In this document: one piece after another, positions 1-64,000 of the stretch
Numbering within the stretch: the first letter of the stretch is position 1
How the letters are laid out: each line of letters begins with the position of its first letter
Origin: an uncultured Ruminococcus sp.
Lineage (GTDB): Bacteria > Bacillota > Clostridia > Oscillospirales > CAG-382
Direction: 5' to 3'
Assembly (NCBI GenBank): GCA_964402515.1
Contig: CAYOCM010000002.1
Location: forward strand, 4,669-68,668
Length of the DNA stretch: 64,000 nucleotides
Notes under the pieces: generated by a model
Told to the model about the DNA's origin: nothing
The model's input: only the letters and a program-made list of their open reading frames with translations
Database searches by the model: none
Made by a program: the position numbers and the translations under genes

Positions 1-63
1 CAAGGCGGTAAAAATAATTTTGCCGATATGACGCAAAAACACGCTGATTTTTTAAAATAACTG

Positions 64-92
64 TTGCAAAGTTTGCGCTTGTATGATATAAT
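64..92 (+). promoter_or_regulatory. sigma-A-type promoter for rplS
   Basis: TTGCAA (64-69), 17-nt spacer, TATAAT (87-92), with TG at 84-85 giving an extended -10. Confidence 0.6.
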
Positions 93-160
93 GTCCCGTA
101 AAAATATCGCGCGGTCCTCTGCGGCTCGGTATGAACGTGCGAAATAATAAGGAGGAGCTT

Positions 161-511
161 ATGAATACAAACGCAATTCTTAAAGCTTTTACAGACGAGC
201 AAGTGAAGAAAGAGACCCCCAAGTTTAACGTAGGCGACAGCGTCAAGGTTTACCAGCGCATCGTTGAGGGTACCCGCGAAAGAACACAGATCTTTGAGGG
301 CACCGTCATCGCCAAAAAGAACGGCGGCATCTCTGAGACCTTTACCGTGCGCCGTGTTTCGTTCGGCGTCGGCACCGAAAAGACTTTCCCGCTCCACAGC
401 CCCAACGTACAGGATGTCGTTGTGACTCGTCGCGGCAAGGTTCGCAGAGCAAAACTTTATTATCTGCGTTCCAGAGTCGGCAAGGCTGCCAAGGTCAAAG
501 AACAAATATAA
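161..511 (+). CDS. rplS: 50S ribosomal protein L19
   Basis: The translation contains [36 protein letters not shown]...[13 protein letters not shown], typical of bacterial L19. ATG 161 is preferred over the track start at 131 because GGAGGAG lies at 151-157. Confidence 0.95.
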
Positions 512-522
512 TTTCTTCGCTA

Positions 523-557
523 AAAAGTGTCTGTATCAAATCAGACACTTTTGTTCT
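523..557 (+). terminator. rho-independent terminator after rplS
   Basis: Stem AAAAGTGTCTG (523-533) pairs with CAGACACTTTT (542-552) around an 8-nt loop, followed by a T-rich tail. Confidence 0.65.
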
Positions 558-560
558 AAT

Positions 561-1286
561 ATGACATTTTGCGAGGCATCACTGATGAAATTCAACACAT
601 CGGATAATCTTGATATTATAAACACAGACGCACCGTGCGATAACGGCGATATGCCCGAGGCAGATCGCGAGGCGACCGCCGAAGCGCAAGCCGACACCGC
701 GCAAAGCGACGCCGTACAGGACGAAGATACAAAACAAAAAAAACAAAAAAGCGCATCGAATGTGTTTGAATATGTCGAAACCTTCTGTTTTGCGCTTGCC
801 GCAATGGTGCTTTTGTTTATGTTTGTCTTTAGGCTTGTTACGGTAGACGGCACGTCGATGTCCGAGACATTGGCACATAACGACAAACTTATAATAAGCA
901 ATATGTTTTATACCCCGCAAACCGGCGACATCGTTGTAATCAACAGATCGTCGGACGCAAAGCCGCTCATAAAACGCATCATTGCCACCGGCGGTCAGAC
1001 GGTAAAGATGGATTTTAAAAATTGGCAGGTATGGGTTGACGGAGTTTTGCTTGACGAAACCTATGTTACGTTGCGTCCCGATGCCGAGATGCGCACGGGT
1101 GTTTTTACCGACAAATATACAGACGGCGGCATATGCGAGTTTGTGGTCGATGATGATTGCATTTTTGCCATGGGCGATAACCGCAACAACTCGCTTGACA
1201 GCAGATATTACGGATTTTTCGAATGCCACGAGATAGTCGGCAGAGTGGTCTTGCGCCTGTCGCCGCGATTTGGGACGGTGGATTGA
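561..1286 (+). CDS. lepB: signal peptidase I (S26 family)
   Basis: Motifs GTSMSETL (catalytic Ser), LIKRIIA (catalytic Lys) and GDNRNNSLDSRYYG are present. An acidic N-terminal extension of about 70 aa precedes one TM helix. The exact start is uncertain. Confidence 0.85.
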   Translation: MTFCEASLMKFNTSDNLDIINTDAPCDNGDMPEADREATAEAQADTAQSDAVQDEDTKQKKQKSASNVFEYVETFCFALAAMVLLFMFVFRLVTVDGTSMSETLAHNDKLIISNMFYTPQTGDIVVINRSSDAKPLIKRIIATGGQTVKMDFKNWQVWVDGVLLDETYVTLRPDAEMRTGVFTDKYTDGGICEFVVDDDCIFAMGDNRNNSLDSRYYGFFECHEIVGRVVLRLSPRFGTVD

Positions 1287-2113
1287 TGGAACATATAGTT
1301 TGGTATCCCGGGCATATGGCAAAAGCAAAGCGTCTGATAGCCGAAACATTGCCGCAGATAGACGCGGTAATAGAACTTGCCGACGCGCGCGTGCCCGTTT
1401 CAAGCCGCAACCCCGATTTTGACAAACTGTTTTGCGGCAAGCCGCGGCTTTTGCTTTATACAAAGTCTTCGCTTGCCGATGCAAACGTGACAAAAAAACA
1501 TGCCGCGGCCGCCGACGCGATAGCCATCGACTGCAAAACAGGCAGCGGAATGCAAAACATTTCGCCCGCTTTAAAGTCTTTGATGTCCGAACGCCTTGAG
1601 CGCAACGCGCAAAAAGGTGTTACACGCGATATCAAAGTTATGGTCGCGGGCATAACCAATGTAGGCAAATCAACGTTTATCAATACTTTTTCCGGCACAA
1701 AAAAGGCAAAAGCCGAAGACCGCCCCGGCGTCACACGTTCAAACACTTGGATACCCACCGACAAGGGCGTCATAATGATGGATACCCCGGGGTTGCTATG
1801 GCATAAATTCGACGATCGCAGTGTTGCGATAAAACTTGCCTGTCTCGGCTCGATAAGAGACGATATATTGGATCAGCTTGAATTGGCAATCGAGTTGATT
1901 GCCATGCTCAGAATTAAATATCCCGAGCTTTTGTGTGCAAGATACAAGCTCGGCACCGTTGATGAAAGCGAAGACAACTATGACCTGTTTTGCCGCATAG
2001 CCAAAAAGCGCGGATTTATACGCAGCGGCGCCGAGGTGGATGAAGAACGTACCGCCGCCGTGCTGCTTGATGAATTCAGAGGCGGCAAAATAGGCAGAAT
2101 AACTCTCGATTGA
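1286..2113 (+). CDS. rbgA: ribosome biogenesis GTPase A (YlqF/RbgA)
   Basis: The protein starts MEHIVWYPGHMAKAKR and has a circularly permuted GTPase layout (DARVP...NVGKST...DTPG). ATG 1286 overlaps the lepB stop (TGATG). Confidence 0.9.
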   Translation: MEHIVWYPGHMAKAKRLIAETLPQIDAVIELADARVPVSSRNPDFDKLFCGKPRLLLYTKSSLADANVTKKHAAAADAIAIDCKTGSGMQNISPALKSLMSERLERNAQKGVTRDIKVMVAGITNVGKSTFINTFSGTKKAKAEDRPGVTRSNTWIPTDKGVIMMDTPGLLWHKFDDRSVAIKLACLGSIRDDILDQLELAIELIAMLRIKYPELLCARYKLGTVDESEDNYDLFCRIAKKRGFIRSGAEVDEERTAAVLLDEFRGGKIGRITLD

Positions 2114-2209
2114 CGCTTTTGATGCGCAATTAATGTTCATGTTGTTAATCATAATATAATTATAAATAACATCAAACAATATTAATATATTAAAGGAGGC
2201 TGTTTGGGT

Positions 2210-2842
2210 ATGATAGACTGGACGTTGCAGAGAACCTTTTATACAGATGAGGTAAACATCATCTGCGGCTGCGACGAAGCGGGCAGAGGGCCGTTGGCAG
2301 GCCCTGTTTTTGCCGCCGCCGTCATTCTGCCCAAAGATTGCCATATAGACGGCCTCGGCGATTCTAAGAAACTTTCCGAGCGCAAGCGCGACGAACTGTA
2401 TGACATCATCAGAGAGCGTGCGGTCGATTTTGCGATAGAGCGCGCCGATGTTGCCGAAATCGAAGCCGTAAACATTTTAAACGCGTCGATGCTTGCCATG
2501 CGCCGTGCGATAGAAGCATTGCGCACAAAACCCGACCTTGCGCTTATAGACGGCAATATTGTGCGAAATATTCCGGTCAATGCCATAGCCGTGGTCAAAG
2601 GCGACGGCAAAATACCGTCGATAGCGGCGGCATCAATACTTGCAAAAGTATCACGTGACAGATATTGCATCGAGATGGATCGCATATATCCGGGCTATGA
2701 TTTTGCAAAGCACAAAGGATATCCCACAAGAGAACACAAAGAAGCTATATTAAAATACGGTCCGTGCCCCGCGCACCGTATGAGCTTTTTAAAAAAGACG
2801 CTTTATGGCACCGACAACGATACAGTCAGGCAAAATTGGTGA
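2210..2842 (+). CDS. rnhB: ribonuclease HII
   Basis: Contains CGCDEAGRGPLAGPVFAAAVIL and a DSKKLSERKR motif. AAAGGAGG at 2192-2199 favours ATG 2210 over TTG 2204. Confidence 0.9.
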   Translation: MIDWTLQRTFYTDEVNIICGCDEAGRGPLAGPVFAAAVILPKDCHIDGLGDSKKLSERKRDELYDIIRERAVDFAIERADVAEIEAVNILNASMLAMRRAIEALRTKPDLALIDGNIVRNIPVNAIAVVKGDGKIPSIAAASILAKVSRDRYCIEMDRIYPGYDFAKHKGYPTREHKEAILKYGPCPAHRMSFLKKTLYGTDNDTVRQNW

Positions 2843-3224
2843 GGCGGCGGCCGAAAAGTTTTATCTGTCTCGGGGCTACACGATAATAGCACGCAATTAT
2901 TCGGTCAAAGGCGGCGAGATAGACCTGGTCGCTTTCAGGTGCGGAACATTGGTGTTTATCGAGGTAAAATCAAGGTCGTCAAACAAGTTCGGCGCGCCTT
3001 CCGATGCGGTGGATCAAAGCAAAATATATCATCTGCACACCGCGCAAAGGCAGTTTTTATATGATAATATGCGTGGCAAAAAATTGCCGATATATTCCAA
3101 GCTTTTAAAAGGCGAGATCTATCGACGCATATTTAAAATGCGTTGTGACATCGCCGAGGTGTATTTGGCCGAAAACAACAGGATAAATATTATAAAAAAC
3201 GCATTTGAGGTTGCAGAGATATGA
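2805..3224 (+). CDS. yraN: YraN family (UPF0102) endonuclease-like protein
   Basis: GEAAAEKFYLSRGYTIIARNYSVKGGEIDLVAF...VFIEVKSRSS matches the YraN pattern. The rnhB-yraN synteny is conserved in Firmicutes. Confidence 0.75.
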   Translation: MAPTTIQSGKIGEAAAEKFYLSRGYTIIARNYSVKGGEIDLVAFRCGTLVFIEVKSRSSNKFGAPSDAVDQSKIYHLHTAQRQFLYDNMRGKKLPIYSKLLKGEIYRRIFKMRCDIAEVYLAENNRINIIKNAFEVAEI

Positions 3225-4693
3225 TGTATTTGAGCACACGTAACAACGACCGCAAAAGATACACATCGGCAGAGGTCATCAAAAACGGCATTGCCGCCGA
3301 CGGTGGACTTTTTGTGCCCGAATGTATACCGTCGGTCTCGGTCGAAGAGATACGCGAAATGTGCCGAATGACTTATCCCGAAAGAGCGGCACGCATACTT
3401 TCGATGTTTTTGACCGACTATATGTATGACGAATTGCTTGACGCCGCAAAAAGCGCTTATTCGGCCGAATCGTTCGGCGAATACGCGGCGCCAGTTGCGG
3501 CGCTCGGCGGTAGCGATATGTATATTGTCGAATTGTGGCACGGCCCGACCGCGGCATTTAAAGACATGGCGTTGCAGATAATGCCGCACCTGCTGTCAAA
3601 AGCGCTTAAAATAACGGGCGAAAAGCGCGACGCGCTGATACTCGTTGCCACAAGCGGCGACACCGGCAAAGCGGCTCTCGAGGGATTTAAAAACGCAGAG
3701 CAGACAAAGATACATGTTTTTTATCCCTGCGACGGAGTATCCGAGATACAAAAACGTCAGATGGCGACAACCGAGGGTGCCAATGTTACGGTCACTGCCG
3801 TCAAAGGCAATTTTGACGATTGCCAGAGCGAGGTCAAAAAAATATTCGCAGACGCCGAAACGGCAAAGATCCTGTCCGATCGCGGCGTGTTTTTATCAAG
3901 TGCCAACTCGATAAACTGGGGCAGATTGGTTCCGCAGACCGTATATTATTTTTCGGCATATTGCGATATGGTTTCAAACGGTTGCATAGAGCTCGGCCAA
4001 AAAATCGATGTTGCGGTGCCTACCGGCAATTTCGGCAACATACTTGCATGCTATATGGCCAAAAAGATGGGCTTGCCGATAAGACGTTTGGTGTGCGCCT
4101 CTAACAAAAACAGAGTACTTACCGACTTTTTTGAGACCGGCGTTTACGACAGCCGCCGCAAATTTTATACCACCGCGTCGCCGTCAATGGATATATTGAT
4201 ATCGTCAAATCTCGAAAGACTTATTTATTTTGTTTCTGGTGCCGATAAAACCCGAGAATATATGCAAAAGCTCGCAAAAGACGGCTTTTTTGAGGTCGAT
4301 GCCGATACGATGGATGTGATAAGGCGCGATTTTTCGGCTTATTCCGCCGATGAAAAGCAATGTGCCGACGCCGTAAAATATTTGTTTGACATGTTCGGAT
4401 ATCTTTGCGATACGCATACCGCGGTTGCCGTGCACGCCGCAAAACTGCAAAAAAAAGACAAAACCGCCGTGCTTGTCGCATCGACGGCTTCGCCTTATAA
4501 GTTTGCGCCGGCCGTTTTGTCGGCGCTCGGTCAAACGGTTGACACAGAGCTTGACGCTCAAACCGAACTCGCAAGTCTTACACAAACCGATATTCCCGCA
4601 TGTCTGCGAGATGTCATGTCAAAGCCCATACGCTTTGACAGTGCCGCATCACGCGACGACATGCTGCGCGAGGTGCTTCAGCACACGGTCTGA
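3221..4693 (+). CDS. thrC: threonine synthase
   Basis: 490 aa with the PLP-lysine motif HGPTAAFKDMALQ and the ATSGDTGKAA loop. Confidence 0.9.
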   Translation: MMYLSTRNNDRKRYTSAEVIKNGIAADGGLFVPECIPSVSVEEIREMCRMTYPERAARILSMFLTDYMYDELLDAAKSAYSAESFGEYAAPVAALGGSDMYIVELWHGPTAAFKDMALQIMPHLLSKALKITGEKRDALILVATSGDTGKAALEGFKNAEQTKIHVFYPCDGVSEIQKRQMATTEGANVTVTAVKGNFDDCQSEVKKIFADAETAKILSDRGVFLSSANSINWGRLVPQTVYYFSAYCDMVSNGCIELGQKIDVAVPTGNFGNILACYMAKKMGLPIRRLVCASNKNRVLTDFFETGVYDSRRKFYTTASPSMDILISSNLERLIYFVSGADKTREYMQKLAKDGFFEVDADTMDVIRRDFSAYSADEKQCADAVKYLFDMFGYLCDTHTAVAVHAAKLQKKDKTAVLVASTASPYKFAPAVLSALGQTVDTELDAQTELASLTQTDIPACLRDVMSKPIRFDSAASRDDMLREVLQHTV

Positions 4694-5674: not shown

Positions 5675-6505
5675 ATGTCTATAATCATCGGCATAGATGT
5701 CGGCGGCAGCACAACAAAAATAGTGGGCTTTGAGGGTGAAAAACCGCTTGAGCCGTTTTTGGTCAAAGCAAACGACCCGATAGCATCTCTTTACGGCGCC
5801 TTCGGCAGATTTACATCTGTAAACAACATTCCGTTGTCAAATATAAGCAAAATATATGTCACGGGCGCGGGCGGCAGTTTTGTCGACAGTTCGATATACG
5901 GCCTGCCCACCGAAAAAGTTGAAGAATTCGACGCCACCGGTCGAGGCGGACTTTATCTTTCAAAACTCGACGAAGCGATAGTGGTCAGCATGGGCACCGG
6001 CACGGCATTGGTATATGCCAAGCGCGGAAAGATATACGAGCATCTCGGCGGCACAGGCGTCGGCGGAGGCACTCTGATAGGCCTTTGCAAAAGACTGATG
6101 TCTTTGTCGGATGCCGATGCGATATCAGACCTGGCAAAAGACGGCGACCTGTCAAATGTCGATCTGCTTATAAAAGATATCTCGTGCGGCAACATTCCCA
6201 CGCTTGAGGCAAATGCCACGGCGTCAAATTTCGGCAGTTTATCAGAGCTTGCCACAAACGCCGACATAGCGCTCGGCGTGCTTAATATGATATTCGAGAC
6301 GGCAGGTGTGCTTGCCGTATTCGGCGCAAGGCTTAAAAAGCTCGACAAAATAGTGCTTACGGGCAATATTTCGGTGATACCGCAGGCAAGAGAAAGATTT
6401 GACATACTTGAAAAAATGTTCGGCGTCAGGTTTATTATACCCGATAATTCGGCATACGCCACGGTTATAGGCGCGGCTCTTGCGGGAAAGGATGTAGACA
6501 GATAA
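5675..6505 (+). CDS. coaW: type II pantothenate kinase (CoaW-like, ASKHA fold)
   Basis: GIDVGGSTTKIVGF, VSMGTGTALV and LGGTGVGGGTLIGL match the CoaW (fumble-type) motif set. ATG 5675 is preferred over the long track ORF, which overlaps the previous gene. Confidence 0.7.
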   Translation: MSIIIGIDVGGSTTKIVGFEGEKPLEPFLVKANDPIASLYGAFGRFTSVNNIPLSNISKIYVTGAGGSFVDSSIYGLPTEKVEEFDATGRGGLYLSKLDEAIVVSMGTGTALVYAKRGKIYEHLGGTGVGGGTLIGLCKRLMSLSDADAISDLAKDGDLSNVDLLIKDISCGNIPTLEANATASNFGSLSELATNADIALGVLNMIFETAGVLAVFGARLKKLDKIVLTGNISVIPQARERFDILEKMFGVRFIIPDNSAYATVIGAALAGKDVDR

Positions 6506-10096: not shown

Positions 10097-11542
10097 ATGT
10101 TTGATGTACTTATCATAGGCGCGGGCATATGCGGCTCGGCGACGGCTTATTATCTTTCGCACAGCGATTTAAAGATTTGCGTTGTCGACAGAGAACCCGA
10201 CGTTGCCATGGGCACCACAAAAGCCAACAGCGCCATAATCCATGCGGGATACGATCCCGAACCGGGCACGTTGCTCGCAAAGCTGAATGTTGAAGGTAAC
10301 CGTCTGTGCGGCGAACTTGCAAAAGAACTCGGATTTGCTTTTAAACGCATAGGTTCTTATGTTTTGGCATTTTCACCCGAAGACGACGAGACGGTCAAAA
10401 AACTTTATCAAAAGGGCATAGCCAACGGCGTGCCGGGGCTTGAGATACACACAAAAGAACAGATAAAAGCAAACGAACCCAATGTTTCGGATTCTGTCAC
10501 TTCGGGGCTTTATGCTCCGTCGGCGGGCATAGTTTCGCCCTGGGGATATTGCCTTGCGCTTGCCGAAAACGCGGTGACAAACGGTGCCGAATTTGTTTTG
10601 GGTAACGGTGTTATGTCAATAGAACGCAAAGACGGTATTTTTTATGTCACGCTTGAAAACGGCAATGTTTTGCAGTCAAAATACATCGTCAACTGCGCGG
10701 GCATACACGCCGCCGAGATATGCGCCATGCTCGGTGAAAAAGAGTTTGAAATATTCCCGTCAAAGGGTCAATATTTTCTGCTTGACAAAAATCAGAGCGG
10801 CATAGTAAATCACGTTATGTTTCAGTGTCCGTCGGCGGTCGGCAAGGGCGTTTTGGTCTCGCCCACGGCGGGCGGCAACCTGATAGTCGGCCCCAACGCC
10901 GAATCGGACAGCCGTTTTGATGACCTTTCGACAGACGCCGAGGGACTTGATTTTGTCGCGCGCGCGGCGGCAAGAACCACGTCAAAGATCAACTATCGCG
11001 AAAACGTGCGCTGTTTTGCCGGACTCAGAGCAAATTCGGACAGAAGCGATTTTATCATCGAGCCTTCAAAGCACGATTCGCATTTTATAAACGTTGCGGG
11101 CATAAAATCTCCCGGCCTTTCGGCCGCGCCCGCTATTGCAAAATATGTCGTTTCGCTGCTTGCAGAGCAAGGGCTTGAACTTGTGCCCAAATCCGAAATA
11201 AAATATGCTCCGCGCCGCATAAGTTTTGCAAAGGCTTCGCCCGAGCAGCGCAAAGCGCTTATCGCCGAGGATCCGAGATACGGCACGGTCATATGCCGTT
11301 GCAACACGGTCACCGAGGCAGAGGTCGTGGCGGCCTGCCACAGCCTGATAAAACCCGTTTCGCTTGACGGCATCAAACGCCGCGCGGGCACGGGAATGGG
11401 CAGATGCCAGGGCGGTTTTTGCTCACCCAGAGTGCACGAGATAATCGCGCGCGAACTCGGCATTGCTTATGAAGACGTTATTCAAGACAGAATCGGCTCG
11501 CACATCGTGTGCGGCAGAATAGGGGAAAACAACGATGATTGA
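10097..11542 (+). CDS. FAD-dependent oxidoreductase, GlpA-like, with a BFD-type [2Fe-2S] domain
   Basis: N-terminal dinucleotide fold FDVLIIGAGICGSATAYYL, and a C-terminal segment CRCNTVTEAEVVAAC...GTGMGRCQGGFC. Confidence 0.8.
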   Translation: MFDVLIIGAGICGSATAYYLSHSDLKICVVDREPDVAMGTTKANSAIIHAGYDPEPGTLLAKLNVEGNRLCGELAKELGFAFKRIGSYVLAFSPEDDETVKKLYQKGIANGVPGLEIHTKEQIKANEPNVSDSVTSGLYAPSAGIVSPWGYCLALAENAVTNGAEFVLGNGVMSIERKDGIFYVTLENGNVLQSKYIVNCAGIHAAEICAMLGEKEFEIFPSKGQYFLLDKNQSGIVNHVMFQCPSAVGKGVLVSPTAGGNLIVGPNAESDSRFDDLSTDAEGLDFVARAAARTTSKINYRENVRCFAGLRANSDRSDFIIEPSKHDSHFINVAGIKSPGLSAAPAIAKYVVSLLAEQGLELVPKSEIKYAPRRISFAKASPEQRKALIAEDPRYGTVICRCNTVTEAEVVAACHSLIKPVSLDGIKRRAGTGMGRCQGGFCSPRVHEIIARELGIAYEDVIQDRIGSHIVCGRIGENNDD

Positions 11543-13240: not shown

Positions 13241-15337
13241 TTATTGAATCCAATCATATCCGCCTGAAATCTGCGAATGTTTTGTTATTAATTGCTCATG
13301 ACTTCCGTTCATGACCGATGCCAAAGGACCTCGTTGGCAAATCGCATTTACGTTGTATATACAGAATTTGTTTTCAAACCTTGCATCGTCCGCTTTGATA
13401 TAAGTCATAACGAACAAACCTTGCGCTTCATTAGTGGGCAGATCGCCAAACGAAGGAATATTCAAACTTCCGTTAGCAAACAATACTGTATTATAAAGAG
13501 CTATATTGGAGATAGAATCCTCATCATAATCGTCTTCGCTTGTTTTAATAGTTAGCATATATCCGTTTAAATCAAAATATAACTCATCTAATATACAAGG
13601 AGGGTACGGATAGTTACACTGTACACCGAACATTTCAACAAACTCTTTTACACTAAGTTCAACATTTTGTGTAAGTCTGTAATAATAAGTTTTTTTATCG
13701 GTTTCATCATTTTCGACCTTGCTGGTTATATCATATCCGCTGATCTTGATTATTTCTGCATCGTCGGGGATAGCACTGTAATGATGGCAATCGCCATTGG
13801 TGCAGAAGCCGTCGGCGCCGTGGTTATGAGCGGCTTTTATATCTTCTTTGCCCTCGTTGTAAGTGCAGTTTTTGCACTGTTGATATTGGTTATGACCGTC
13901 TTCGGTGCAGGTTGGTTCTTTTGCCTGAATAGTTTCTAAATCGTGACCTGCCTTAATAAGCACATAATCGGTATCTTTTTCTCCGCAAACCGAGCACTTG
14001 TGATATGTATTCCAACCGTCTTCGGTGCAAGATTTAGCTTTCGCGTCAACTACAACCGACATATCATGTCCGGTAGCTTTTATGACCTCATAGCCTTTTA
14101 CGGCACTGCAACGCGAGCATTTTTGATAATCTTTATAGCCGTTTACGGTGCAAGTTGCATCTTGACCTTTTTGATCTCGATAATCATGTCCGAGAACTTC
14201 GGTAGTTTTAAATTCTGTATGTCCGCATTTCTTGCAGTATTTGAACTGAACGCCCGGAGTTGTGCAGTTTGCCTCGGTAAGCTCTCGCCACTCGGAATAG
14301 CTCTCGTGTTTGCAGTTTTCGATAACCGTTTCACCGGGAACCTCAATCTTAATAATTTCTTTTTCACCGGGAACTTCGACTATTACAGTTTCTTTATCGC
14401 CTTTTACTTTTTCAAAAGTCTGTTCAAAGAGTACGCAGTCGCACAAAGTGCATTTCATGGTAACTTTGTAACGTGTTTCGTCTATATCGGTAGTTACAAA
14501 CTCGCCTCCGATATGATCGTGATCGGGGTTAAGCATGTCACAGAAATAGCATTTGTTTTCTGAATTGTAAAGATGCTGGCTATAAAGCGCACCTTGGTCT
14601 TCGTCAATACCTACAACGTTTTCTTTTGCATCATGGAACATAGTTCCCGCAGCGGCTATGACCTTGCCGCCGGTTTTGGTAAATGTTCTTACAAATCCGT
14701 AAACGGTGACGGTGCCGTCTTTAACGGCAAGAGCGCCACCGTAGGTGCGAACTCGGAGTTCCTTGTCTTTGGCGTCAACGGTCACATTGATCTGACTGTG
14801 TCCGGCGTCAAAATTGCGGTCGATAACAGTGATTTCAGTGGCATCGCCGTTATAATAAATCGAATAGTTGTGCTCAAAACCGCTGACCTTATCATCGACA
14901 TAATAAAAGTTAATGACAGATTCTTTTGCCGTTTGCTTTTGCTCGTCGGTTACGATATCTTCGGGAACATAATTAACGGTTTTGCCCTCGCCGTCTTCGG
15001 CATAGCAGAATACATCGTTAACGCTGTCCCACAGGATATAGAATCCCTCGGTGGTCGGCTTGATAAGCGTTACGTCAAAGCCGTGCTCTTTAACGGCATG
15101 AACCGCGTCGTGCATAGTGTCGTGCTTGCCGTTTTCGGTCTTATCGAGCGCAAGAGCGGTATTAAGGTTGCGCACCAACTGCACGTCGGCACTTACGTTC
15201 GCCTTGTTAACAAGGTTTATAAACGTCGGGATAAGTACCGCGGCAAGAATCGCTATGACCGCAATAACTATCACAAGTTCGACGACCGTAAAACCTTTTT
15301 TTGTCTTGATACTTGTTTTCAAGTTTGTTTCCTCCAT
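13241..15337 (-). CDS. large prepilin-type N-terminal cleavage/methylation domain protein with Cys-rich repeats
   Basis: KKG|FTVVELVIVIAVIAILAAVLIP is a class III (type IV pilin) signal with Glu at +5. The likely true start is TTG 15322, because GGAGGA at 15334-15329 lies 7 nt upstream of it and it gives the leader MKTSIKTKKG. Confidence 0.8.
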   Translation of the reverse strand: MEETNLKTSIKTKKGFTVVELVIVIAVIAILAAVLIPTFINLVNKANVSADVQLVRNLNTALALDKTENGKHDTMHDAVHAVKEHGFDVTLIKPTTEGFYILWDSVNDVFCYAEDGEGKTVNYVPEDIVTDEQKQTAKESVINFYYVDDKVSGFEHNYSIYYNGDATEITVIDRNFDAGHSQINVTVDAKDKELRVRTYGGALAVKDGTVTVYGFVRTFTKTGGKVIAAAGTMFHDAKENVVGIDEDQGALYSQHLYNSENKCYFCDMLNPDHDHIGGEFVTTDIDETRYKVTMKCTLCDCVLFEQTFEKVKGDKETVIVEVPGEKEIIKIEVPGETVIENCKHESYSEWRELTEANCTTPGVQFKYCKKCGHTEFKTTEVLGHDYRDQKGQDATCTVNGYKDYQKCSRCSAVKGYEVIKATGHDMSVVVDAKAKSCTEDGWNTYHKCSVCGEKDTDYVLIKAGHDLETIQAKEPTCTEDGHNQYQQCKNCTYNEGKEDIKAAHNHGADGFCTNGDCHHYSAIPDDAEIIKISGYDITSKVENDETDKKTYYYRLTQNVELSVKEFVEMFGVQCNYPYPPCILDELYFDLNGYMLTIKTSEDDYDEDSISNIALYNTVLFANGSLNIPSFGDLPTNEAQGLFVMTYIKADDARFENKFCIYNVNAICQRGPLASVMNGSHEQLITKHSQISGGYDWIQ
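13820..14272 (-). repeat. four tandem protein-level repeats of about 40 aa, C-T-x2-G-x5-C-x2-C-x(10-12)-(G/A)H(D/N)
   Basis: aa 356-385 ANCTTPGVQFKYCKKCGHTEFKTTEVLGHD; aa 394-425 ATCTVNGYKDYQKCSRCSAVKGYEVIKATGHD; aa 435-466 KSCTEDGWNTYHKCSVCGEKDTDYVLIKAGHD; aa 475-506 PTCTEDGHNQYQQCKNCTYNEGKEDIKAAHNH. Confidence 0.8.
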
Positions 15338-15356
15338 AACTTAAAAATGTGAATAT

Positions 15357-15382
15357 GTACGCCTAACAGTATATTAGGCGTA
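15357..15382. repeat. left 26-bp inverted repeat (lox-like site: 10-bp arms, 7-nt core CAGTATA)
   Basis: GTACGCCTAACAGTATATTAGGCGTA is the exact reverse complement of 15505-15530. It is internally palindromic except for the 7-nt core. Confidence 0.85.
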
Positions 15383-15395
15383 CGTTTATGGTGTC

Positions 15396-15424
15396 ATAAT
15401 AGCAGACAAAAAACATTTTGTCAA
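15396..15424 (-). promoter_or_regulatory. near-consensus sigma-A promoter facing the pilin-like gene
   Basis: Read on the minus strand: TTGACA (15424-15419), 17-nt spacer, TATTAT (15401-15396). Confidence 0.65.
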
Positions 15425-15504
15425 TAGTTTTTACAATAAAAAATGAACTTTTTTAACAAATAGGCCTTTATTGATACTTGTTATCGTTTAATTTTGGTGT
15501 TTTT

Positions 15505-15530
15505 TACGCCTAATATACTGTTAGGCGTAC
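15505..15530. repeat. right 26-bp inverted repeat (core TATACTG, the reverse complement of the left core)
   Basis: TACGCCTAATATACTGTTAGGCGTAC. It is separated from the left copy by 122 bp. Confidence 0.85.
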
Positions 15531-15557
15531 GTTTTTATATTAATATAACACGCACAT

Positions 15558-15630
15558 AAAAACGCCGATATGCTTTTTGCATACCGGCGTTTTTAATTGT
15601 ATAAAAGGTCGTCACACGGACGACCTTTTT
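15558..15630. terminator. two tandem hairpin terminators downstream of the InlB-repeat operon
   Basis: Hairpin 1 spans 15562-15590 (11 of 12 bp paired, TTTTT loop) and is flanked by A5 and T4, so it can act in both directions. Hairpin 2 is GGTCGTC (15607-15613) paired with GACGACC (15619-15625), flanked by an A-run and a T-run. Confidence 0.7.
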
Positions 15631-63136: not shown

Positions 63137-64000
63137 ATGAAAACTCTTCTCAAATTATCGACAAAATCGGCTTTTAAAACCAAAAACGGCATTTGGGTGA
63201 TAGTGGGAATAGCGCTGTCGGCCGTAATATTGACGGTTGTTTGTTCAACATGGCAGATGCTTATCGACTTTGAAGATCTGATAGTATACGATATCATCGC
63301 ATCAAAAGGCAATTATACCGTCGCAGAAACGACTTCTCTTATAAAAACATATCCGCCTCGCGTGCAGATATGTAACATTGCCGTGATTTTTTGCGTCGTT
63401 TCGTCTTGTGTCGCCGCCGCAATCGTCTACGGTTCGATGCACGCAAAAAAGAACGAGTTGACAAAAACCGTTTCGTTGCTTTCTTGTCTCGGTATAAAAC
63501 CTCGTCAAAAAACTGTATTTCTGCTGTTGCAGGCAATGTTACCTTTTTGTGTTGCGTTTCCGATAGGAACAGTGTCGGGTATGCTGATAGCAAAACTCAT
63601 GCTTGATGATTTTAACGGCAAAGTGTGCAACCCCATGGGATACGATAACATTGCGTTTTTAGGCGACCGTATTGCTTTTTATATTGCGCTGATATTTGCT
63701 TTGTGCGCACTGTCTGTGCTTGCGGCAGCAGCAACGTTTGCCGCGCATGTTTCAAAGCACTCGCCGATAGTGACGTCTCGTTTTTACGGCAAAATCAATG
63801 TGTCGCTGAAAGAAACCCGCATCGACAAGCATTTGCAAAGCAAATACAAGATTTGCGCAAAATTGGGAAAATCAAATTATTATAACAACAAAGCAAAATA
63901 CCGAATTTTTGCGATAATAATTTCTTGCGCTTCTTTTTTGTGCGTTTCGTTGTCACTGTCGCGGCGTTATTTGGCGCAGGGTAAAATATCGTCAAACGCA
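63137..64000 (+). CDS. FtsX-like ABC transporter permease (5' partial; runs off the window)
   Basis: My manual translation from ATG 63137 stays open to position 64000. It begins MKTLLKLSTKSAFKTKNGIWVIVGIALSAVIL and contains ...LLSCLGIKPRQKTVFLLLQAMLPF, an FtsX-domain-like segment. It is absent from the ORF track because no stop is reached. Confidence 0.55.
   Translation, partial: MKTLLKLSTKSAFKTKNGIWVIVGIALSAVILTVVCSTWQMLIDFEDLIVYDIIASKGNYTVAETTSLIKTYPPRVQICNIAVIFCVVSSCVAAAIVYGSMHAKKNELTKTVSLLSCLGIKPRQKTVFLLLQAMLPFCVAFPIGTVSGMLIAKLMLDDFNGKVCNPMGYDNIAFLGDRIAFYIALIFALCALSVLAAAATFAAHVSKHSPIVTSRFYGKINVSLKETRIDKHLQSKYKICAKLGKSNYYNNKAKYRIFAIIISCASFLCVSLSLSRRYLAQGKISSNA

Follow-up and report, generated by a model that had tools for sequence, protein, structure and literature searches.

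A short promoter-bearing cassette bracketed by two inverted, lox-like sites is very probably an inverton, a switch that works by site-specific DNA inversion and by which a prepilin-type surface protein is put ON or OFF. The proposal of an invertible promoter, put forward earlier from the letters of the DNA (the sequence-only reading in what follows), is supported by three sets of facts: pairs of the same arms recur at other loci with cores that are specific to each pair, both orientations of the promoter are found across these loci, and two independent assemblies of related loci break exactly at the predicted junctions. By extension, we infer that the cassette of the window (the whole 64-kb stretch of DNA analysed; Table 1) would itself flip, and that its promoter would be active.

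The mechanism that is envisaged is the following. A dimer of the recombinase would bind the two inverted arms of each site, and the two sites would synapse in antiparallel alignment; strand exchange within the reverse-complementary cores would then invert ~150 bp (~15367-15520). In the ON state the promoter would read leftward through the proximal site, transcribed as a 5'-terminal RNA hairpin, and into the gene. In the OFF state it would read rightward, and the transcript would be stopped by the hairpin and T-tract of the distal site and then by two terminators. The recombinase, encoded elsewhere, would probably serve several switches as a master invertase.

Table 1. Features of the proposed switch in the window, the paired sites of four other loci, and the orientation of the promoters
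Feature	Position or source	Strand	Detail
Gene-proximal site (IRL)	15357..15383		arm GTACGCCTAA, core CAGTATA (15367-15373), arm TTAGGCGTAC
Distal site (IRR)	15505..15530		arm TACGCCTAA, core TATACTG (15514-15520), arm TTAGGCGTAC
Invertible cassette between the sites (proposed)	15384..15504		inverted-repeat analysis
Sigma-A-type promoter, outward-reading	15396..15424	-	11/12 consensus matches
Predicted 5' UTR	15323..15389	-	transcription start inferred
T-rich tract GTTTTTATATT	15531..15541	+	directly outside the distal site
Two bidirectional terminator hairpins	15557-15595 and 15603-15629	both strands	hairpin/terminator prediction
Putatively controlled gene, prepilin-type protein, 693 aa	13241..15322	-	PF07963, TIGR02532, type IV pilin helices in PDB
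Site pair, L005	Ruminococcus sp. MAG CAYSUO010000040		cores TAACATA / TATGTTA
Site pair, L011	contig Ga0256405_10000265		cores TTATGTA / TACATAA
Site pair, L012	Ga0256405_10000265, as L011		cores TTTGTTA / TAACAAA
Site pair, L014	same metagenome as L011/L012		cores TAGTGCA / TGCACTA
Promoter ON (toward the gene)	window, L011, L012		consensus matches 11/12, 12/12, 10/12
Promoter OFF (away, into terminator-like hairpins)	L014, L005		consensus matches 11/12, 12/12
Promoter OFF	L027/L028/L039; L030-L032		consensus matches 12/12 + TG (for L027); 12/12 + TG (for L030)

The site pair, its promoter and its gene

The segment 15505-15530 is the exact reverse complement of 15357-15382 (GTACGCCTAACAGTATATTAGGCGTA), and the inverted repeat can be extended to 37 nt at 89% (15346-15382 / 15505-15541). 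These perfect 26-nt repeats, 122 nt apart, flank a short intergenic segment, as inverted repeats do in known invertons. The left site is a perfect 10-7-10 arrangement, with its arms at 15357-15366 and 15374-15383; the right site is 9-7-10, base 15504 being T and not G. The structural claims of the sequence-only reading all hold, among them the perfect reverse complementarity and the mutually reverse-complementary cores. Each site consists of two inverted arms around an asymmetric 7-bp core, which is the geometry of the core-type sites of tyrosine recombinases, and a core of 7 nt can never be its own reverse complement, so that the polarity of the site is guaranteed.

The pair stands alone in the window. 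With up to three mismatches allowed, the pattern TACGCCTAA-N7-TTAGGCGTA occurs at two places in 64 kb, both of them these sites (0.01 expected), and none of 100 shuffled controls reached two matches; the 9-mer arm is confined to the four half-sites of the pair, which is also the sole strong spaced inverted repeat of the window. A second spaced inverted repeat (63365-63382 / 63532-63549), 83% complementary and apparently within a coding region, was dismissed as chance. No target-site duplication or flanking direct repeat was found beside the sites of the window.

The promoter within the cassette comprises TTGACA (15424-15419), a 17-nt spacer and a TG-extended TATTAT (15401-15396), and the -10 element stops 12 nt short of the proximal site. 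By consensus match it reads outward, across one repeat, toward the adjacent pilin-like gene. The minus-strand promoter that the sequence-only reading had picked out, its aim at the prepilin-like gene (the ON orientation in this assembly) and the tandem terminators to the right of the distal site were all recovered, by consensus scan for the promoter and by computed hairpins for the terminators. The terminators close the convergent upstream operon.

The predicted 5' UTR folds with a minimum free energy of -24 kcal/mol (z = -6.2), and the proximal site, which lies within it, forms its 5'-terminal RNA hairpin. In a second predicted hairpin of this UTR (15315-15346, minus strand) the ribosome-binding site occupies the loop and the TTG start codon is base-paired; this hairpin could be a means of translational damping. 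At the other end of the cassette, positions 15505-15529 together with CGTTTTTATA score on the plus strand as a terminator-like element and have the make-up of an intrinsic terminator, which is compatible with the distal site doubling as the terminator of the OFF state; the gene-proximal outside flanks are without an adjacent T-tract. The opening codons of the pilin-like gene (15306-15320) and a segment of the cassette (15471-15485) form a 15-nt direct repeat with 14/15 identical positions, which may be chance or a trace of the origin of the cassette.

The pilin-like protein carries a canonical class III signal, KKG/FTVVE, scores above the cut-offs of PF07963 and TIGR02532, and can be aligned with the alpha-1 helix of type IV pilins of solved structure. 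Two starts had been proposed for its gene. The TTG at 15322 is the most likely one in view of the ribosome-binding site GGAGGA (15335-15330), 7 nt upstream, and of the 693-aa length of the database copy, P0001; it also fits the N-terminus of the protein P0003 better than does the ATG at 15337, which would yield 698 aa and is less likely. At residues ~330-520 lie about five tandem cysteine-rich units of ~33 aa each, with the pattern C-T-x-x-G ... C-x-x-C ... G-H-D, outside Pfam and NCBIfam coverage. Homologues carry LRR, Big_2, cohesin or beta-helix modules in place of this region, the same four kinds of module by which precomputed Pfam assignments differ between members of the family. The family numbers at least 1881 matches among the 8000 candidates scored.

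The surroundings are those of an ordinary chromosome, with Spo0A, ScpA/B, ProRS and RNase HII among the genes. ProRS is ~76% identical in the closest named relatives (Oscillospiraceae, Ruminococcus and Clostridia MAGs) and 88% identical in L055 (JGI 3300001598, 1-4200), a close relative with the gene order of the window: ProRS, an 827-aa InlB-B-repeat protein and a 110-aa gene. The switch and the pilin gene are absent from this syntenic region, which has a cation-efflux gene instead; the switch-plus-gene module is therefore accessory at this position.

The putative recombinase

The sequence-only reading had placed no recombinase gene in the window, and the searches bear this out. Searched by phmmer with E. 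coli FimB, FimE, XerD and PinE, the window and L001-L034 yielded no homologue at E<=10 from any ORF of 80 aa or more, and the positive control worked; Pfam scans of 28 window proteins returned non-recombinase families only. A regular expression for tyrosine-recombinase box II picked out no recombinase in the window or in the related sequences scanned, and the gene tables for 10 kb on either side of L027-L032 list no integrase or resolvase families. The dedicated site-specific recombinase of an inverton is thus found neither within the window nor near the related switches, and the enzyme would accordingly act in trans, from a gene elsewhere in the genome.

What kind of enzyme this would be is suggested by the sites. 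Their arm-N7-arm geometry, the identity of the whole 7-bp core between partners and the odd length of the centre all point to a tyrosine recombinase. An inversion switch run by a serine invertase of the Hin/Gin type, on hix-like 26-bp sites, would account for the symmetric arms and for a site length of 26-27 bp, which is that of hix. However, serine recombinases make a 2-bp staggered cut between two central bases, whereas the dyad axis of the 10-7-10 site falls on a base, and all seven core positions, not just two, are identical between partners. Sites of the hix/gix kind are of even length, with a 2-bp crossover and an adjacent invertase or enhancer; here the centre is an odd 7 nt, the segment neither contains nor adjoins an invertase gene, the sequences searched yielded no PinE homologue, and a cassette of 122 bp is much shorter than typical Hin/Gin segments. 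A serine invertase is therefore improbable. Action in trans has a precedent in B. fragilis, where Mpi, Tsr0667 and Tsr19 are known to work in this way (PMC4747536).

Related loci: arms, cores, promoter orientation and assembly breaks

Exact-arm scans of genome and metagenome collections returned 23 stretches, most of them solo matches in unrelated taxa; for the genome collection, an estimated ~9 chance matches are expected in 596 Gb and 8 were found. Scanned viral contigs yielded solo, unrelated hairpins only, and the Hadza-type site had no match there. A solo but perfect site, TACGCCTAA-TACTATA-TTAGGCGTA, lies in a rabbit-gut Clostridia MAG (L008:4118-4142), between a terminator and a glutamate-dehydrogenase-like gene and with no partner in the 4.7-kb contig, which shows that not every copy of the site is paired.

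Paired TACGCCTAA/TTAGGCGTA arms were found at four other loci of uncultured Clostridia (L005, L011, L012 and L014; Table 1). With the window these make five pairs and five different cores, which share 3-6 of 7 bases between loci. Within each of the five pairs the cores are exact reverse complements, with 0/35 mismatches between partners, versus 11/90 in the arms (Fisher one-sided p = 0.022): partners have identical overlap regions, as the sites of tyrosine recombinases do. Since L011 and L012 lie on one contig, one genome has different cores at different loci (an apparent overlap of the two was rejected, being due to dispersed repeats). As far as these five pairs go, constraint on the arms extends over the whole family and constraint on the core holds within a pair, and this contrast is the signature to be expected of recombinase-binding arms around a partner-matched crossover region.

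The genes that lie behind these sites are related too. At L011 and L012 the switch is upstream of an operon for a small membrane protein and a protein of 746-819 aa whose N-terminal ~130 aa are clearly homologous to the protein of the window; at L014 it is followed by the beginning of a homologous small membrane gene, at which point the contig ends. P0002 matches 93% of the window protein at 51% identity, and the site GTTCGCCTAA-TAGTATA-TTAGGCGAAC lies directly upstream of its gene. In L005 (1-5512) the operon behind the same arms is not of the pilin-like kind: it encodes a SipW-like signal peptidase together with proteins that bear SipW-type signal peptides, which suggests that one recombinase may serve several kinds of surface-structure loci.

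Other arm families share the architecture. One, CGTAGAG-TTACCAA-CTCTACG with its partner CGTAGAG-TTGGTAA-CTCTGCG 124-125 nt away, is found at L027-L032 and L039 (Hadza-gut and other human gut assemblies); another, TACATA-ATGGTTAA-TATGTA, is found in L040, L041 and L043. Both sets of sites, 7-7-7 and 6-8-6 respectively, lie upstream of pilin-like homologues. L040 has a second inverted-repeat pair (3731-3992; 20 nt, 95% complementary, 222 nt apart) upstream of the next operon of small gene and pilin-like gene on the same contig; from this one contig, neighbouring paralogous operons would each seem to have a switch of their own. Two contigs from two runs (L025:1-80 and L026:1-80) have an identical starting base, 78 nt ahead of a pilin-like homologue, behind which lies a sortase gene. 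They begin ATACGCCATTTTTGCAGG..., which is not a TACGCCTAA-type site, and the start may mark a fourth type of site or the boundary of a repeat.

Two further observations concern the proximal sites. The pair of genes for small membrane protein and pilin-like protein is tandemly duplicated in L011 (5985-7300 and 9528-10181); the second copy has kept its proximal site (core TTATGTA, near 6441) and its promoter and is without a distal site, so that it may be locked ON, or may recombine with the distal site at 10157, inverting 3.7 kb in the manner of a shufflon. At L011:9980-9988 and L014:208-216 the outer arm of the proximal site is degenerate (TTCCTCTAA and TTCATCTAA) and reads on the coding strand as the ribosome-binding region, GAGGAA, of the gene that follows; site and ribosome-binding site overlap. 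The distal site at both loci is perfect while the proximal outer arm has decayed, which argues that conservation of the arms is not driven by a hairpin in mRNA, and suggests that three good arms may suffice for recombination.

These facts weigh heavily against the notion that hairpins are all there is, the distal site being a terminator and the proximal one a stabiliser of the 5' UTR, both descended from a promoter-carrying mobile hairpin of the REP/REPIN or MITE kind. The terminator score of the distal site with its T-tract and the strong 5'-terminal hairpin predicted for the proximal site are in keeping with such an origin, as are the solo hairpins with the same arms in unrelated contigs; in L024, moreover, the arms have changed symmetrically (GTACGCC...GGCGTAC to GTTCGCC...GGCGAAC), which would fit selection for a hairpin. 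However, the numerous near-identical copies, solo elements and target-site duplications that mark REP/REPIN sequences or MITEs are not seen: the sites are two in 64 kb and paired, not scattered singly as in the REP-like scenario that the sequence-only reading had named as the contrary case; the two exact-pattern matches on a 174-kb contig each belong to a switch that precedes a pilin-like operon; neither cassettes nor cores are the same from locus to locus, leaving no repeated element; and the matches in unrelated taxa are about as many as chance provides. The decay of the proximal outer arm in L011 and L014 would, in addition, have broken the UTR hairpin while the untranscribed distal site stayed perfect. 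An origin in mobile hairpins is accordingly very improbable.

The inversion switch makes a further demand, that both states should occur. Cassettes of different loci show no meaningful similarity when aligned in either orientation, so that orientation has to be read from the promoters. Each cassette has one strong promoter (10-12/12 match) next to one site and reading outward, toward the gene at some loci and away from it at others (Table 1); on this consensus evidence, both states of the proposed switch occur across homologous loci. A reading of L005 as ON, from a 10/12 match on the plus strand, was rejected in favour of the 12/12 promoter on the other strand. Opposite orientations of one and the same locus were not seen in any two assemblies: the seven full-length assemblies that cover the loci of P0120/P0122 and P0078 (L027, L028, L039; L030-L032) are without exception OFF. 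The distal sites of L012 and L014 are terminator-like on the outward strand, as in the window; that of L011 has a T-run directly outside, and the L005 site has T-tracts on both sides.

Contig ends supply a different kind of evidence. The flipped junctions computed for the window are ...TATTAGGCGTAAAAAACACCAAAATT (also given as ...CAGTATATTAGGCGTAAAAAACACCAAAATT) on the left and ATGACACCATAAACGTACGCCTAATATACTG on the right. The end of L004 and the start of L005 share a 55-mer, the last base of which is the last that the native and the flipped L005 cassettes have in common; L029, a k141 contig by its name, begins at exactly the first base that the two orientations share, a position predicted from L027, a full-length assembly of the same gene. 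The inverted repeats in question measure ~25 nt (L005, perfect) and 27 nt (L027, at 96%), and the assembly k was 55 and 141: repeats so far short of k cannot by themselves cause the L004/L005 and L029 breaks, for which heterogeneity of sequence is needed. In L024 and L054, from two different runs or samples, the contig opens with the first base of the site, for which a slightly longer perfect repeat could also account if k = 31. Other breaks are less precise: L033 and L034 begin within the site, and in L042 and L044 the break falls between the operon's two genes. Repeats shared by paralogues may have a part in these four breaks, and in the contig ends of L025 and L026.

Static regulation, in which the palindromes would be operators for a dimeric transcription factor that flank and repress the promoter (for example by looping) while nothing inverts, hardly survives these data: each site is indeed a good dyad, the arms are conserved across species, sites lie on both sides of the promoter and no recombinase gene is nearby, but the spacer of an operator needs no match to that of its partner, yet 5/5 pairs match exactly with locus-specific cores, the promoter points away from the sole candidate target gene in L014, L005, L027 and L030, and assembly graphs branch exactly at the predicted inversion junctions.

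Known switches and the biology of the family

The closest described analogue of the proposed inversion switch is the set of invertible promoters with GTTAC[N7]GTAAC inverted repeats upstream of Bacteroides S-layer and capsule genes, for which flipping has been verified experimentally (PMC4611039); master invertases that act on distant promoters have been described as well (PMC4747536). The Bacteroides switches (e.g., BT1927, with tyrosine invertases of the Tsr type) share with the present ones the dyad arms, the 7-nt spacer, and a short promoter cassette flanked by sites and placed upstream of a surface-structure gene. They differ in that the arms here are 9-10 bp long and of unrelated sequence (TACGCCTAA), the host is an Oscillospiraceae-like Clostridium and the target is of the prepilin type.

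With loxP, FRT and dif, in which symmetric arms enclose an asymmetric crossover region of 6-8 bp that sets polarity, and which yield inversion when two sites are inverted, the likeness is one of geometry alone: the sequences bear no resemblance, and the present sites have not been linked to a Cre, Flp or Xer gene. E. coli fimS and the RecV switches of C. difficile are functional analogues. In fimS, too, an invertible promoter drives a pilus (fimbrial) gene, and recombinase half-sites enclose a short core of inverted repeats. The 314-bp fim element has 9-bp inverted repeats, requires IHF and Lrp, and is adjoined by fimB and fimE, which encode tyrosine recombinases; in contrast, no FimB or FimE homologue is present here, in the window or in L001-L034. 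In C. difficile a single trans-acting tyrosine recombinase, RecV, works on several loci (flgB, cwpV and cmrRST) with differing inverted repeats, which are not known to be dyad-symmetric, lox-like sites. Firmicute hosts and short invertible promoter/UTR cassettes are common to both; the difference is that here the arms are common to the loci and the core alone differs. The inverted repeats of the C. difficile flagellar switch are the subject of PMC12282940.

Invertons have been surveyed on a large scale (PMC11892184, PMC11602134). Neither the arm sequences nor a link to prepilin-type genes was found in the searchable texts and supplements. In full-text literature the arm sequences gave unrelated matches, and a search for invertons with pilins or prepilins in Clostridia brought up no description. 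Three things take the present case beyond the textbook one: arms that are common across species, cores that differ from pair to pair in a single genome, and a second role, as terminator, for the distal site.

A wider proposal, held tentatively and at rather less than even chances, is that these loci belong to an undescribed regulon of lox-like invertons in gut and rumen Oscillospirales. It would comprise at least three arm families with pair-specific cores of 7-8 bp, modular prepilin-type proteins (more than 1800 homologues) that vary in phase, and, in at least one genome, a SipW-dependent fibre operon under the same arms; master recombinases would act in trans, locus-specific cores would keep the switches apart and guard the chromosome against rearrangement, and the distal site would be the terminator of the OFF state.

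There are practical consequences. The arm motif offers a way of finding such switches without reads, and the master recombinase might be tracked down by the co-occurrence of recombinase subfamilies with arm families; recombinase engineers may also take an interest in what is a natural set of orthogonal combinations of arm and core. For annotation, the ON or OFF state of a gene in a MAG should be taken as a snapshot, and contigs tend to break at the sites.

Invertons have been well studied in Bacteroidota and C. difficile, but only poorly so in the uncultured Oscillospiraceae and Ruminococcaceae, the dominant members of gut and rumen communities. What the loci considered here suggest is that these bacteria may phase-vary a large, C-terminally diverse family of pilin-anchored proteins, likely adhesins, and that each such gene would have a switch of its own, built on an arm sequence that is common to the switches.
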